A DNA stretch of 64,000 nt from Octopus vulgaris (lineage: Eukaryota). Both the position numbers and the translations under genes were made by a program. The notes under the pieces are model-generated. The model did not search any database and was not told the origin of the DNA. It was given only the letters and a program-made list of their open reading frames with translations. Location: positions 35,340,001-35,404,000 of the forward strand of contig OX597825.1 of NCBI GenBank assembly GCA_951406725.2, given 5' to 3'. This document shows, in pieces, positions 3,066-38,169 of this stretch (position 1 is the stretch's first letter; every line of letters starts with the position of its first letter).

Positions 3066-3278
3066 CCGAAGTGGTGCTGAAAAGTTTCTGGTTTTGGATG
3101 AAAGAAAATACGGGAGGATCAGTTAATTATGATTTTATTCAACATATTCCTCTCCCAGATCCACACACTTACTGCAGCGGTCCTTCATCTTTTCTACGTC
3201 CTGTAAAAGAACTCGTTGGGCCTCCAACCAGGCCTTTCGCGACACCCATAAAGCTAGGAACTTTTCAGCAGTCCCTCA
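3066..3278 (-). mobile_element. Mariner-derived MITE
   Basis: TIRs GTGCTGAAAAGTTTCTGGTTT / AAAGCTAGGAACTTTTCAGCA. It is the reverse-complement counterpart of 55065-55277. Confidence 0.85.
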
Positions 3279-4174: not shown

Positions 4175-4553
4175 TTTTATTTCTTTATTGCCCACAAGGA
4201 GCTAAACATAGAGGGGACAAACAAGGACGGATAAAGGGATTAAGTCGATTACATCGATCCCAGTGTGTAACTGGTACTTAATTTATCGACCCCGAAAGGA
4301 TGAAAGGCAAAGTCGACTTCGGCGGAATTTGAACTGAGAACGTACCGGCAGACGAAATACCTATTTCTTTACTACCCACAAGGGGTTAAACACTGAGAGG
4401 ACAAACAAGGACAGACAGACGGATGAAGTCGATTATATCGATCCCAGTGCGTAACTGGTACTTAATTTATCGACCCCGGAAGGATGAAAGGCAAAGTCGA
4501 CCTCGGCGGAGTTTGAACTGAGAACGTAACGGCAGACGAAATACCGCTAAGCA
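4175..4553 (-). mobile_element. SINE family B, dimeric form (5'-truncated)
   Basis: Two head-to-tail units, each with GAGTTCAAATTCCGCCGAGGTCGACTTTGCCTTTCATCCTT...-type cores, joined near 4361. The dimer has the same structure as 13171-13580. Confidence 0.9.
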
Positions 4554-13170: not shown

Positions 13171-13580
13171 AGGCGCCGAGCTGGCAGAAACGTTAGCACG
13201 CCGGGCGAGATGCTTAGCAGTATTTCGTCTGCCGTTACGTTCTGAGTTCAAATTCCGCCGAGGTCGACTTTGCCTTTCCTCCTTTCGGGGTCGATAAATT
13301 AAGTGCCAGTTACGCACTGGGGTCGATGTAATCGACTTAATCTGTTTGTCTGTCCTTGTTTGTCCTCTCAGTGTTTAACCCCTTGTGGGTAGTAAAGAAA
13401 TGGGTATTTCGTCTGCCGTTACGTTCTGAGTTCAAATTCCGCCGAGGTCGATATTGCCTTTCCTCCTTTCGGGCTCGATAAATTAAGTACCAGTTACGCA
13501 ATGGGGTCGATGTAATCGACTTAATGTCCTTGTTTGTTCCCCCTATGTTTAGCCCCTTGTGGGCAATAAAGAAATAAGAA
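13171..13580 (+). mobile_element. SINE family B, full dimeric form
   Basis: Head, then unit 1 ending GTGGGTAGTAAAGAAAT, then unit 2 ending GTGGGCAATAAAGAAAT. Flanks CATTACGTTATCGAA / AATCACGTTACCGAA. Confidence 0.92.
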
Positions 13581-22113: not shown

Positions 22114-22450
22114 CATACATACATACATACATACATACATACATACATGTGTATGTAGAGAGAGATAGTTCTGTATGTAAACGTCTATGTTTATATTTTT
22201 TGTGTTTTTTCTTTTACTTGTTTTTGTCATTAGACTGCGGCCAAGATGGAGCACCGCCTTGAAGAAATTTTAGTCGAATGTATCGACGTAAGTACGTTTT
22301 TTTGAAGCCTAGTACTTTTTCTATCGTTTTCTTTTTGTCGAACCTCTGGGTACAGACACGTAAACGAACCAACATCGGTTGTTAAACGGTGGTGGGGCAC
22401 GAACACAGATAAACACGTGCGTACAATCAGACATGCACAAACACACATAT

Positions 22451-22506
<56 letters not shown>

Positions 22507-22685
22507 ATAATAAATATTAGGGAATAAATCCAAATTTACAGGGAAAAAATCAGATTTAGGATTAAATCCAATTTTATAGTAAAATATTATATAATATTAA
22601 TTCGAGACAAAACCACTATTTTGCAAAACAAACAAGGAAAGACTTAATCAATACATAAAAATTTTAATATAAAATAAATAAACCG

Positions 22686-22729
22686 CCACTACAATCGTTT
22701 CATGTCTTCCAATGACATTCATCAGGTGG
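22686..22729 (-). ncRNA. Minimal type I hammerhead ribozyme (PLE-type)
   Basis: CCAC CUGAUGA AUGUC auuggaa GACAU GAA ACGAUUGU A GUGG. Stem I is CCAC/GUGG, stem II is 5 bp, stem III is quasi-palindromic, and the cleavage triplet is GUA. Confidence 0.8.
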
Positions 22730-22797
22730 ATTTCCGTTCTTCTAATCAGTTTTAATTTATGAAGTCATAAATAAAAACTGATTAGAAGATCGGAAAT

Positions 22798-22841
22798 CCA
22801 CCTGACGAATGTCATTTGAAGACATGAAACGATTGTAGTGG
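22798..22841 (+). ncRNA. Minimal type I hammerhead ribozyme (PLE-type)
   Basis: CCAC CUGACGA AUGUC auuugaa GACAU GAA ACGAUUGU A GUGG. The CUGANGA, GAAA and NUH core motifs are all present. Confidence 0.8.
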
Positions 22842-22926
22842 CGGTTTATTTATTTTATATTAAAATTTTTATGTATTGATTAAGTCTTTCCTTGTTTGTT
22901 TTGCAAAATAGTGGTTTTGTCTCGAA

Positions 22927-22987
<61 letters not shown>

Positions 22988-23193
22988 ATATATGTATAAA
23001 TGTATATATACATATATATATATTTATTCAATGGGCTTCATTCAGTTTCCGTCTACCAACTAAATCCACTGACAAGACTTCCGTGGGCTCGAATCTATAG
23101 GAGAAGGCACTTGCCCAGGGTGTCGGCTGCGTGACTGAACCCGGAAACATGTGGTTGGGAAGCAAGCTTCTTACCGCACAGCCATATTTACAT

Positions 23194-25966: not shown

Positions 25967-27560
25967 ATGGCTCAGAAGATGAATCCCAGTGAAAGTGGTA
26001 AACGTAAAGCCATTTTGTTGGAAGATAAAGTGGATATGATAAAACGATATTTAAAAGGTGAAAAGATTATAGCCATTGCACGATCGTTTGGGATGAGCCG
26101 TACGGCTGTATCAACGATTGTGTACGATAGAGATAGGATTATAGTACATGTAAAAGATGATGGTTGCAAGGATGACAAACACCATCATCAAGAAGAGAGG
26201 AGGAATCTACGAAGAGATGGAGTAACTTCATGCCCTTTGCGCTGAAAGGCAGAATCGTTAGCAAGCAAATTGTAGTCAGGAAATAATTCAGAAGAAACCA
26301 TTGTCTTTGCTTGAAGGTTTTAAAAAGAAATATCCAGATGAGAAAGACGTAGAATTTAAAGAAAGTTGGGGATGGTTTATGAGGTTTAAGCAGCGGCAGG
26401 ATTGCACTCTCCCTAAAAATAAGGTGAAGACGAATCAGCTGACGATGTTGCTGCAGCGGAATTTCCTGCTACTTTACCGAAGATTATTGAAGATAATGGA
26501 TTTCTAACCGAACAAATTTCTGGCTACAAAGTATCAAAAGAATGTTGGACCTTAATGTTGAGAGGCAATTGTGCAGGTGACTGTAAGCTAAAACCGCAGC
26601 TTGTGTATCATGTGCCGAACCGCTGAGTTCTTAAGAACATACCCAAGGATTCTCTTCTTGTAATATGGATGACCAATTCAAAGGCTTGGGTCACAGTCAT
26701 TATTTTTGAAGAATGGCTTTTTCGATCATTTTGTTCCTGAAGCAGAAATGTACCGTAAGGCTAAAGGGATTCCTTTTAAAATTCTTATTGTCTTAGATAA
26801 CGCTCCTGGCCTCTCGAAAAACATCGGAAATTTTCATCCCAAAGTCACCGTTATCTTCCTCTCTCCTAACACTACTTCGCTACTGCAACCAATGGACCAG
26901 GGGATAATTGCTATCTTTAAGTGCTATTATATGAAGCTTACATTACGCCAAGCAATATCTGCAACTGACGTCGACGGAAACATCACAGTCCGTAACTTTT
27001 TGAAAAGTTACATCTACAAAGCCATAGTGACCATGACAGCTGCGTGGAATGAGATGACGATCACGGCTATGAATGGGGTGTGGAAGAAGCCGTGCCCATT
27101 ATTTGCCAATGTCTTTAAGGGCTTTAACAGTGTTAAAGTGAACAAGACCGTGATGCAGTTGAGCAATGAACTGGAAATGGAGTTGGAAGAACAGGATTTT
27201 AATGAATTAATTAAGAAAGATAAATAGCCCCTGACAGCAAAGAGTTGATGGAACTTCATGAACAACAGGAAAAAGAAGAAAAGCCTGATCCTGAGCCTCG
27301 TCGTCTTACTTTGAAGAAAATGCAAGAGGCTTTTTCTCATTTAGATAAGTGTCTTGCTTTATTTGAGGAAATGGATCCCAATGCACAACGTTTTGTAAAA
27401 ATACTGGGCGGGTTGCCAAGATACTATTGCACCTTATTACTTAGTCCTTGAAGAGAAGAAAAAGATAATTCAAGGAACTTTAGACAAGTTCGCACAGCGG
27501 TCTACACCATCACAAGAGGAGTCAGCTGACGACCCTCAGCCATCGACATCTAGTGTGTAA
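25967..27560 (+). pseudogene. Tigger/pogo-family transposase pseudogene (element about 25530-27810)
   Basis: N-terminal HTH KRKAILLEDKVDMIKRY...IARSFGMSRTAVSTI, CENP-B-type SWGWFMRFK, and DDE_1 motifs ILIVLDNAPG and FLSPNTTSLLQPMDQGII. Many stops and frameshifts. TTCGACTTA subterminal motifs lie near both ends. Confidence 0.92.
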
Positions 27561-34080: not shown

Positions 34081-37000
34081 GATAAAACAGCGCTCCGAAA
34101 TCTATCCACAAACATCGAAAACAAAGACATCGTATCTTGTTTTTAGCAAAGGATTGGACTATATCCGAGTAAGTAATACTCATTGAAATTATTACTATTT
34201 TCCAAACGAAATGGTGTATTTTAACTCGATATCATCTCCACCTCTAACACAATACAAGTAAACATGCGTGAAACATTACGATCCATCAACACCAGATCAT
34301 CTCCGACCCCAAACACCATGTACAAAAAAACTACAAAGAAATTAAATAACACCGATAATATTCAACCCAAGAATAACAATCGGGAAGTATGTACTTTAAA
34401 CTTACAACATAAAATGTACGAAAAACTACACGTGCAAAACAATGTGACAACAGAAATAAACGGACCGGTACCCTACGAAAATGACGACCGTTAAAATAAT
34501 GGGCCGGACGTTGTTCCTCATGTCCCGCAAATAAAACCCAAAAGACATAAATGGACACGTGAGGAATACATTTCTATCCTACACGCTTACTTTACAGCAG
34601 TGCTCTATCCAAAGAATGAAAACACAACAACACATACATATAAAATATGGAAGGAAAATAACATAAATATAGACTTGGACACAGCAATGAACCCTAATAA
34701 ACTAGCTAACGTACGAAGATACATTCTCAACGCAAAAAATATCAGAAATAGAAATAGAACATCTAAAAGAAAAAATACATCAGGAAAATGTAGATAGAAG
34801 CCACACAACAATGCCCAATAATATAAACACTGAAACAGTAAAACACGAAGCCAAACGTAACATTTCCAACAAAAACAATGTAAACAAAAAACAACAAACC
34901 CAGACCGTAAGGATGCATAATAATACACGACAAACAGCAAGCCAAAACACGACAAACAAACATACAAATAAGAAAGAAAGTGACACAAATCTAAAACCTG
35001 GAAACAACGAAGGGGAGCCTAATGATTATGAGACTATAAAAAGTAGAATAATCAAAGAACTGAAAACCACAGAACTCAAAATGGACCACCGACCATACCT
35101 CCCAAAAATCAAAATAGACGAAACAACAACACCAATTATAAACAGCATAAACCTAGCCGTCACGGAACTAATGCCACTGAAACAAAAAGCGATATCACTG
35201 AGCTAAATGACTTAGTATACGCAGCAGCCACTGCAGCCACAAAAGAAGCTGGATACTCACTCAAACCCATCCAAACAGGAGTACCACCACCCAAACAAAC
35301 CCTGTGGATAAATAACATCCAAAGCAAAATACAAAAAATGAGAAACGATCTGTCGATTCTTAATGAAGTCAGGAGACAACCAACGCTTCTGAGCAACAAA
35401 AAGAAAACAAAAATACTCCGCAAATACAACATCACAGAAAAAGATTTACCTGAGATAAAAGAAAAGCAAAAGCAAGATATCCTTGCCAAAGCACAAAGGA
35501 TCCGCCGGTACGAGAATCGCCAACGTTTCTTTGAATAAAACAAAAAGTTCAACTCCAACTCCAAAAAGTTCTACCAAGAACTTGACAAAAATAAAATAGA
35601 AATCACTGCAGCACCAACGGCAGAAGAAGTGGAAGAATTCTGGAGAGAAATATGGTCGGCGAACGAACAACCAAAAAAAAGGGGTATTAAAACAACAAAC
35701 TCAGCATCTGAGCAACTTTGGACCCCCATAACAACTGAAGAGGTCACCCAGGCACTGCAAAGACTAAGCAACTGGAAAGCACCTGGGCATGACAAGATCC
35801 CCAACTTCTGGTTGAAATATCTAACAGGAATGCACAAAAAGCTGGCTGAAAACTTTAACAACATACTAGCAGAGCCAGAGACAATGCCTGAATGGCTCAC
35901 GAAGGGGAAAACCATCTTAATTCCCAAATCAAATGAGACAGCAAAACCAGAAAACTACAGACCTATAACCTGTCTCCTTATAATGTACAGCAGTAATATC
36001 GCAAAGATTGAACAAGCACCTGGACGAAAACAACCTGCTTCCAGAAGAGCAGAAAGGATGCCGCAAAGGCTCATATGGCTGTAAAGATCAACTAATGATC
36101 AATAAAGCCATAACTGAAGACAGCCACAGAAAGAAGAAAGGCCTCTGTATGGCCTAGATCGACTACAAAAAGGCGTTTGATAGCATCCCCCACACATGGA
36201 TCCTCGAAACACTAGCCATTAACAAAGTAGCACCAACAATTATAAAATACATAGGACACTCTATGAATAAATGGCAAACAGTGCTACAGCTCCAAACAAA
36301 AGACGCACTCATGAAAACCAAAGCCATCCCCATTAGAAGAGGAATATTCCAGGGAGACACGCTCTCTCCACTCCTTTTCTGCTTGGCACTGTCACCTCTA
36401 TCTGATATGCTAAATAGAACTAGATGCGGATATAAATGTTACGGCAAAACGATCAGCCACCTTTTATATATGGATGACCTAAAACTATACGCTGCAAATG
36501 ACAAACAGCTGGAAACACTATTAAAGACAGTTCATGGATTTACCAAAGAAATAGATATGAAATTTGGATTAGAAAAATGCGCCAAAGTAACCCTGAAAAG
36601 AGGAAAACTAGTTAAGAGTAGCAACATCACACTAGATAAAACCAATGAAATAAAAGAATTAGACCATAGCCAAACTTACAAATACTTAGGAATCCATGAA
36701 CTAGATAAGACACAACACACACAAATGAAAGAGAAAATAAAAAAAAGAATATTATAGACGAATTAGATCAATACTAAAAACAGAGCTCAATGCTAAAAAC
36801 AAGATAATAGGTATTAAAACTTTAGCTGTCCCAGTTATAAGTTACAGCTACAATATCCTTAACTGGACACTAAATGAACTGACCAAAATAGATAGGAAAA
36901 CAAGAAAAATAATGACAGGATCTAGGATGCATCACCCAAAATCTGACATAGAAAGACTATATATACAACGTATAGAAGGTGGTAGAGGCCTTATACAGCT

Positions 37001-38169
37001 GGAAAACTACTATAAAATAGCCACCATAGGACTGCAAAAATATCTACTTCAGAAGGAAGGAAAGCTGATACAAATAGCGGCAAAACACGAGCAAAACAAA
37101 AAACTGTCCTCAGTATTTAAGGAAGCTGACAAATACAAACAAGAAATCATACCACCTAACAAAGAAGAAGAAGAAGAAGAAGAAGAAGAAGAAGAAGAAG
37201 AAGAAGAAGAAGAAGAAGAAGAAGAAGAAGAAGAAACAACAAAAGCTATAAAACAAATGAAATCCAAACTAAAACTAGAACAACAAAGAACCATGATAAA
37301 ACGATGGCAAGAAAAGCCCCTTCATGGTAAATACTGGACTAATCTAAATGCAAAAGAAATAGACAAAGAAAAATCCCAGCAATGGTTGAGAAGCTCAGGA
37401 CTCAAAGCAGAGACAGAGGGATTTTTAATTGCAGCACAAGACCAAAGCCTCCCCACCAGAAATTACCAAAAACATGTAATGAAAAGAAATATAACAAGTA
37501 ACTGCAGAATATGTGGAGATGGACAAGAAACAATAAATCATATTATCTCTGGCTGGCCAGTCCTGGCTAAGAAGGAATATATTCACAGACATGACAGAGT
37601 TGGGACCTACATACACTGGAAGCTATGCCAACATTATGGAATAACAACAGAAAAAAGATGGTATAGGCACACACCAGAAAAGGTCACAGAAAACGAGAAA
37701 GCAACCATACTCTGGGATATGCCGATACACACAGATAGAGAAATTAAGGCCAACAGACCAGATATAGTTGTCAGAGATCATGAAGAAAAAAATGCTTTCT
37801 AATTAAGGTATCAATACCAGCAGATGACAACGTGTCTCTAAAAGAAATGGAGAAACTTTCAAAATACAAAGACCTGGAAATAGAGGTAACCAGAATGTGG
37901 AATCTAAAAACAGAAACAATTCCTATCATAGTAGGTGCATTAGGCATGATAAACAAATATTCAGACAAATACATAACAAAAACACCAGGACTTACAAACA
38001 CATATAACATACAGAAAATTGCACTACTAGGCACTGCACACATCCTACACAGAACACCTTCCATACAATAACCATCAGAGCATCACAACAAATCACAACA
38101 CATACCCAAGGCACACAGAGCTGCGCTCGGTAGTGAAGTGAAAGCACGCTATAAAAATAAAACTACGGA
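33961..38169 (+). mobile_element. Near full-length R4/Dong-clade RLE non-LTR retrotransposon (disrupted single ORF, about 34264-38071)
   Basis: Myb-like HKWTREE; RT motifs NWKAPGHD, NYRPITCL, IDYKKAFD, GIFQGDTLSP and YMDDLKLY; GGRGL; CRIC..ETINHIISG(W); RHD; ILWD; NRPDIVV; ALLGTAHIL. (TAA)n on both flanks. Several stops and frameshifts. Confidence 0.95.

Follow-up and report, generated by a model that had tools for sequence, protein, structure and literature searches.

Within the window, by which we mean the whole 64-kb stretch of Octopus vulgaris DNA analysed here, a ribozyme-bearing palindrome consists of two intron-less copies of the leader of a Penelope-like element (PLE), lying head to head in (TA)n DNA and likely produced by the PLE enzyme reverse-transcribing its own spliced sense RNA twice. 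As judged by alignment, the arms are the 5' leader (pLTR) of an autonomous EN+ Penelope-like family of the same genome, and the palindrome is one of hundreds of such insertions; on the same grounds, both arms bear the mark of a precisely removed intron, a feature absent from an earlier, sequence-only reading of this DNA.

That reading had described a 340-bp palindrome with 169-bp arms, about four mismatches, no indels and a 2-nt spacer. The arms (22594-22762 and 22765-22933, each of 169 bp, with 0 indels) are indeed so arranged, with exactly 4 mismatches (22710/22817, 22721/22806, 22737/22790 and 22754/22773); as for the spacer, 2 nt do lie between them, but these are element sequence, the minus and plus arms both beginning at 22765, where they overlap by 1 nt. 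The palindrome is asymmetric, the left arm running 91 bp further (22503-22593), and (TA)n is present at both outer ends of the element. The features are the following:

22460-22502, no strand: (TA)n target, left flank
22503-22765, minus strand: long arm, spliced pLTR leader running from +1 (22765) through the hammerhead to the far (tail) end, aligned to exon 1, exon 2 and tail of the parent copy L104
22503-22593, minus strand: one-sided tail, ending 54 nt before the parent ATG
22686-22729, minus strand: minimal type I hammerhead, predicted cut after 22690, with private changes at N7 (C>U) and in loop II
22739-22765, minus strand: exon 1, 27 nt, fused to exon 2 at 22739/22738, where a GT-AG intron of about 1.1 kb interrupts the parent
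22765, no strand: head-to-head junction, minus-arm +1 / plus-arm +4, with a 1-base overlap
22765-22788, plus strand: exon 1 remnant (+4 to +27), fused to exon 2 at 22788/22789
22765-22933, plus strand: short arm, spliced leader stopping at the near end, without tail; exon 2 identical to that of the intron-bearing copy L061
22798-22841, plus strand: minimal type I hammerhead, predicted cut after 22837 (GUA), with the self-complementary stem III strand at 22829-22836
22934-22957, no strand: (TA)n target, right flank

Measured in the parent between the two modal ends, the tail is about 86 nt long. The locus is most likely an inert insertion. Next to its TA tracts, at 22230-22420 and 23020-23190, lie repeats which we take to be SINE-like, similar sequence being found beside many other copies. 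Elsewhere in the window there are a non-LTR retrotransposon fragment unrelated to the palindrome (36158-37802, plus strand; RVT_1, E 3.9e-21, then a weak zf-RVT), a DDE_1 transposase fragment (26673-27227, plus strand; E 1.9e-14) and a 315-nt inverted pair (4239-4553 and 13211-13525), 93% complementary and 8.7 kb apart, in which a dispersed repeat is probably present twice.

The earlier suggestion of a PLE remnant with minimal hammerheads, inserted as an inverted duplication in AT-rich DNA, is borne out by a parent family, possibly Neptune-like, that carries the same pLTR around an RT/GIY-YIG ORF. Near-complete elements were reached through L061, an inverted pair with a 2.2-kb spacer, and its upstream sequence; in the parent, an upstream region precedes exon 1 (27 nt) and the GT-AG intron, after which come exon 2, which holds the hammerhead, the near end, the tail and the ORF. 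The copy L104, arranged as pLTR-ORF-pLTR, contains the intron, exon 2 with the hammerhead (2907), the near end (about 3049), the far end (about 3135), an ATG at 3189 and an ORF that extends to 5602 with one break, followed by 1.75 kb of non-coding DNA and by a downstream pLTR in which exon 1, a 1078-nt intron, exon 2 and the tail occur again. Direct pLTRs bearing the hammerhead flank the ORF in L104, L199, L201, L203, L204, L205 and L208. Open ORFs of 837-851 aa were found in 5 of the 11 loci fetched for whole ORFs, all belonging to a sister subfamily; in the parents of the window's own subfamily (L104 and L201) the ORFs are broken. The 837-aa ORF displays the RT motifs DIDNYY, PMG and YRDD and a C-terminal VYKC..YIG (GIY-YIG endonuclease); atlas clusters of the parent ORF are HTH_animal, GIY-YIG and RVT_1 (at 0.95-0.98), its homologues are cephalopod and carry PF26215, and a Pfam scan and a PDB sequence search with it returned no match. 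Contigs from four runs, guessed to be RNA, cover pLTR and ORF on part of L111, a stretch without exon 1.

Some further traits of the parent are worth recording. Between RT and endonuclease there is a long Asn/Lys-rich stretch (L104 4660-4890; about residues 500-600 of P0001), recalling the N-rich inserts of Adineta Penelopes; the 1.75-kb post-ORF region and the intron have duplicated blocks in common (L104 5600-8450; L103 5061 and 6085); and several parent copies contain two units of exon 1 plus donor, about 1.0-1.2 kb apart, intron length varying from 0.6 to 1.8 kb. Before the endonuclease lies a C-x-C-x4-C-x5-C stretch; in Neptune and Nematis, a zinc-finger-like linker preceding GIY-YIG has been described with a formula other than that of the octopus parent (PMC8557442).

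In the parent, an Inr-like TCACT precedes the 27-nt exon, after which come GT and an intron that ends in TTTTAG just before exon 2 and spans 561-1849 nt among the 19 exon 1/acceptor pairs listed. In both window arms exon 1 is fused directly to exon 2 and, in the alignment, the parent intron is exactly absent; where a subfamily has AAA or TAA as the last bases of exon 1, the exon junction is unambiguous. Since the intron is absent from both arms, these were likely copied from ordinary spliced RNA of a Penelope-type element. Exact patterns matched at least 725 spliced junctions in the genome versus at least 291 intron acceptors, and each subfamily has its own intron-bearing parent; among the best 30 of 299 candidate ORF-start loci, 21 have the intron, none is spliced and 9 end before the junction.

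The ends of the arms were analysed in a sample of 100 spliced arms from 79 loci, nearly all the loci behind the first 100 listed spliced-junction matches (one listed arm at a locus edge was swapped for one beside another match), the sampling pattern requiring part of exon 1. Ninety-eight arms could be placed, and their 5' ends fall between -4 and +15 relative to the A of TCACT; the 3' ends of the 100 lie at the far site in 49 (long arms), at the near site in another 49 (short arms) and elsewhere in 2, while none of the arms enters the ORF leader. The ends are sharp, a single position accounting for 53 of 67 short ends, and (TA)n of at least four units occurs within 30 nt after 124 of 125 sampled element ends. 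Long and short arms are combined, in inverted orientation, in 60 loci; two loci are short+short, none is long+long, 16 are one-ended and one has no such end. One tailed and one tailless arm are therefore coupled in 60 of the 62 two-ended loci, pointing to the use of one start site per target strand.

Whether copies are tandem or inverted had been posed as a check, and the 65 loci in which two arms could be aligned all have them head to head; at their junctions the arms overlap by 1-11 nt in 33 cases, abut in 3 and are separated by extra letters in 29. The +1/+4 junction of the window is also present in L153, L185, L188 and L194, and six junctions use an 11-nt near-palindrome, exon 1 being partly self-complementary. 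On the two contigs (C1 and C2) where the lists of both spliced and unspliced copies are complete, 32 of 32 neighbour pairs are inverted: 21 are spliced/spliced, 11 unspliced/unspliced and none mixed. Variants private to a locus were found on both arms in 6 cases versus 28 on one arm only (43 loci); together with the absence of mixed pairs, the six shared variants point to one template molecule or source, although variants common to both arms of a locus could also stem from gene conversion. Genome-wide, with patterns that cover some subfamilies only, 263 spliced arms reach +4 and 14 reach -6, versus 239 donor-bearing copies. The start site is therefore not a single one: of the 12 examined among the 14 arms that get to -6 or past it, seven run 56-110 nt upstream, none further and none into the ORF leader. 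This minority start 56-110 nt upstream of +1 (L210-L218, L221) suggests minor start sites in upstream repeats. The base before +1 is G in 8 cases, A in 8, C in 5 and T in 1, and most of the G, candidates for a cap-derived G, may come from the partner arm.

A mechanism that would yield such stubs can be proposed on the model of the anole PLE, whose biochemistry (PMC11167929) suggests that the octopus protein would nick both strands of the TA target; extension of one strand would then begin at the far start site and that of the other at the near site, the leader containing both. If +1 is the start of transcription, the distance of the two sites from the RNA's 5' end would, after splicing, be about 180 and 265 nt, so that each cDNA would run off that end, at the start site, after at most 265 nt, which is how the stubs look. 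The two cDNA 3' ends would meet via a few nucleotides of microhomology, followed by fill-in. A single RNA molecule, or a single source locus, would have given rise to both arms; the template RNA would be uncut, the hammerhead travelling in the stub as a passenger, and the stub would be a dead end. ORF-bearing copies would be primed at the downstream pLTR and may keep their intron because at that place, far from the cap, it would not be spliced; put otherwise, only the cap-proximal intron would be spliced, and RNA spliced in this way would yield only stubs. In its most inclusive form, for which our confidence is only slightly better than even, the proposal is that the stubs are hundreds of fossil run-off cDNAs, left by a dimeric enzyme copying one spliced sense RNA from both sites onto both TA strands; inversion, one-sided tail and intron-keeping coding copies would thereby be explained with no antisense template.

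A different origin is unlikely but deserves discussion: a single far-site cDNA, once extended as far as the spliced RNA's 5' end, would fold back and serve as its own template, with cutting or resolution of the second arm at the near site. The lack of mixed pairs, the six private variants present on both arms, the partial self-complementarity of exon 1 and the near-palindrome at six junctions are all in its favour. It predicts, however, that the tailed arm is always the fuller at its 5' side; of the 29 strongly asymmetric loci, whose arms have 5' ends at least 20 nt apart, 15 have the fuller 5' side on the long arm and 14 on the short one, and in these 14 neither arm can therefore have been copied from the other. 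Arm asymmetry could be due in part to later deletions at the hairpin centre, which on this account would have generated the asymmetric copies and could mimic a fuller tailless arm; the exact stop of most short ends at one near-site position would still demand a separate reason.

Much less probable is an independent non-autonomous mini-element, SINE-like or retrozyme-like, with a spliced master and its own transcription, mobilised in trans. Hundreds of near-identical short copies with defined ends would suit such an element, and Penelope does have an internal promoter (PMC2377424); against it, the spliced copies are not one clade, a comparison of their 94 distinct exon-2 sequences with the 55 of intron-bearing copies requiring 27 changes (AU p=0.0004; overlapping loci may count twice in this set). 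Indeed, 75 of the 94 differ from an intron-bearing copy by at most 2 substitutions, and the two classes have 7 exon-2 sequences in common, that of the right window arm being identical to the one of L061. Junctions differ from locus to locus, no tandem arrays occur among the 79 sampled loci, and the stubs are devoid of the sequence past the far end that the anole protein requires (PMC11167929). The retrozyme-like, protein-free mini-element envisaged in the sequence-only reading thus finds no support, given head-to-head copies that are not one clade and an intron-bearing parent for each subfamily.

Scarcely tenable is self-priming on an antisense template, which Arkhipova et al. (2013; PMC3846280) put forward as an origin of head-to-head palindromes and of retained introns, with an unspliced sense template also left possible. 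Such priming would account for the head-to-head polarity and for the 11 intron-retaining inverted pairs; for the spliced stubs it is refuted, because antisense RNA cannot lose a sense GT-AG intron, and in 21 of the 32 inverted pairs, as in the window pair, both arms are spliced and begin at the Inr-like site. Since the arms are spliced, the palindromes need sense, processed RNA, and antisense RNA made from already spliced stubs is disfavoured as a template by the non-clade result. A MITE or DNA foldback transposon is dismissed, the arms being unequal and matching the spliced leader of an RT element.

Each arm comprises stem I CCAC, the core CUGA(C/U)GA, stem II AUGUC/GACAU, GAA, the self-complementary ACGAUUGU, A and GUGG, so that a minimal hammerhead on each strand, as claimed before, is present in core and stems on the basis of its motif, with the predicted cuts falling after 22837 (plus) and 22690 (minus) as had been put forward. 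The core pattern has only two matches in the 64-kb window, one per arm, and 546 exact matches in the 2.8-Gb genome versus none for a reversed control pattern, and it is therefore not due to chance; as to the linkage check suggested earlier, the pLTR is linked to RT/GIY-YIG ORFs. The covariance-model scan suggested at the same time gave no support: the 58 Rfam matches at E<=10 include no hammerhead family, hairpin and low-complexity matches below gathering scores being the only ones returned, and the assignment consequently rests on motif and family conservation. The definition of a minimal type I hammerhead (CUGANGA / GAAA / UH, short stem I, self-complementary stem III) fits 145 of 147 arms. 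As to the conservation check proposed earlier, core, stem I and four stem II pairs are nearly invariant across these arms of several subfamilies, gathered with patterns that demanded part of the core and hence biased the estimate; variation is found mainly at N7, in loop II, at the 10.1/11.1 pair, at the stem III centre and at H17 (A or U). Within these bounds, conservation suggests selection in the parent lineage.

At the window locus the hammerhead is most likely a passenger, as far as its sequence and computed folding indicate. The computed stem III duplex between molecules is worth -5.8 kcal/mol, and in monomer folding the hammerhead conformation has less than 1% weight; in cofolding, the stem III dimer was obtained for the minus-arm copy and a different pairing for the plus-arm one. 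A transcript through the palindrome is computed to form one long hairpin (-262 kcal/mol); a cis dimer of the two hammerheads was rejected, a transcript of either strand having only one of them in sense, locked in the 169-bp hairpin. Copies run intact across the predicted cut site, and ribozyme cutting was rejected as the source of 5' ends, there being no clear enrichment of truncations: 8 at the cut site, against 5 (in 4 loci) and one further point change for a control site lying 9 nt upstream of it, in two subfamily groups only. Also rejected was an ORF start within the hammerhead, as in the Poseidon element PAc of Anolis, both ATGs there meeting a stop within 10 codons.

Counterparts of many of these features are found in known systems. 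EN+ PLE insertions with inverted pLTRs, as far as covered in the passages available (PMC3846280, PMC8557442), are similar in their head-to-head pLTRs with a tail on one arm, in the AT-rich or (TA)n target, in the Inr-like TCACT of the pLTR and in an Asn-rich ORF stretch; their tail measures 30-40 nt against about 86 nt in the octopus stub, and the two articles stress intron retention and propose an antisense template, whereas the octopus stub has no ORF and is spliced on both arms. In vitro, PAc was shown by Frangieh et al. (2024; PMC11167929) to cut and extend both strands of AT-rich DNA, RT starting at two internal RNA sites whose spacing equals the genomic tail, with uncleaved RNA as the substrate. 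The likeness consists in the two internal RT start sites that set the tail, the use of both target strands and the uncut template, all as proposed for octopus, and in the hammerhead in the pLTR; unlike in PAc, both ends of the octopus family lie before the ORF start, in AU-rich stretches resembling the TA target. In the anole assay the start site was the same for both strands and one-long-one-short coupling was not demonstrated, and the available portion of that text contains no treatment of introns or inverted products. Penelope of Drosophila virilis (Schostak et al. 2008; PMC2377424) likewise has a pLTR intron just past the start, ending beside the hammerhead; it is 75 bp long and 46 nt from the start, versus 0.6-1.8 kb after 27 nt in octopus, most transcripts are spliced and genomic copies are described as intron-retaining.

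The minimal PLE hammerheads of Cervera and De la Pena (2014; PMC4209133) are, as here, of type I, with a 4-bp stem I, a self-complementary stem III and a mostly solitary occurrence, and pairs 100-700 bp apart on opposite strands were already reported there for Schistosoma. In place of the canonical G10.1-C11.1 pair and a stem II of 7-8 bp, the octopus stem II has 5 bp closed by A10.1-U11.1 (sister subfamilies have U-U, A-G or U-A). Metazoan non-LTR retrozymes (Li et al. 2026, bioRxiv 10.64898/2026.07.22.740005) are similarly non-coding, hammerhead-bearing and pLTR-derived; they are head-to-tail tandem repeats, as opposed to the inverted pair with an identified parent seen in the octopus stub. 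At a separate locus of the octopus genome, G000:C5:64451601-64451842, three spliced exon 1/exon 2 junctions follow one another at intervals of about 108 bp, all in one orientation; this small head-to-tail array of spliced leader is possibly the seed of a retrozyme-like repeat.

Minimal pLTR hammerheads and opposite-strand pairs (PMC4209133), inverted pLTRs with one-sided tails (PMC8557442) and the start-proximal pLTR intron (PMC2377424) had thus been published, while the origin of PLE inverted repeats, one-sided tails and intron-retaining copies is treated as an open question (PMC3846280, PMC8557442). A literature search, outside which lay Repbase/Dfam, supplements and some older papers, found no account of spliced, intronless run-off PLE stubs or of a one-long-one-short arm count, and the accessible text of the Octopus vulgaris repeat paper (PMC13282606), in which Penelope families are counted, contains neither "ribozyme" nor "hammerhead" nor "palindrom". 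In the octopus family, the intron, by being present or absent, is a natural marker of the polarity and processing of the template, and two counts, 60 of 62 loci with one arm long and the other short and no mixed pair among 32, have to be met by any PLE model. Such palindromes are better annotated as PLE leader stubs than as MITEs, microRNA hairpins or retrozymes; their value lies less in the locus itself than in what the family says about the PLE mechanism.
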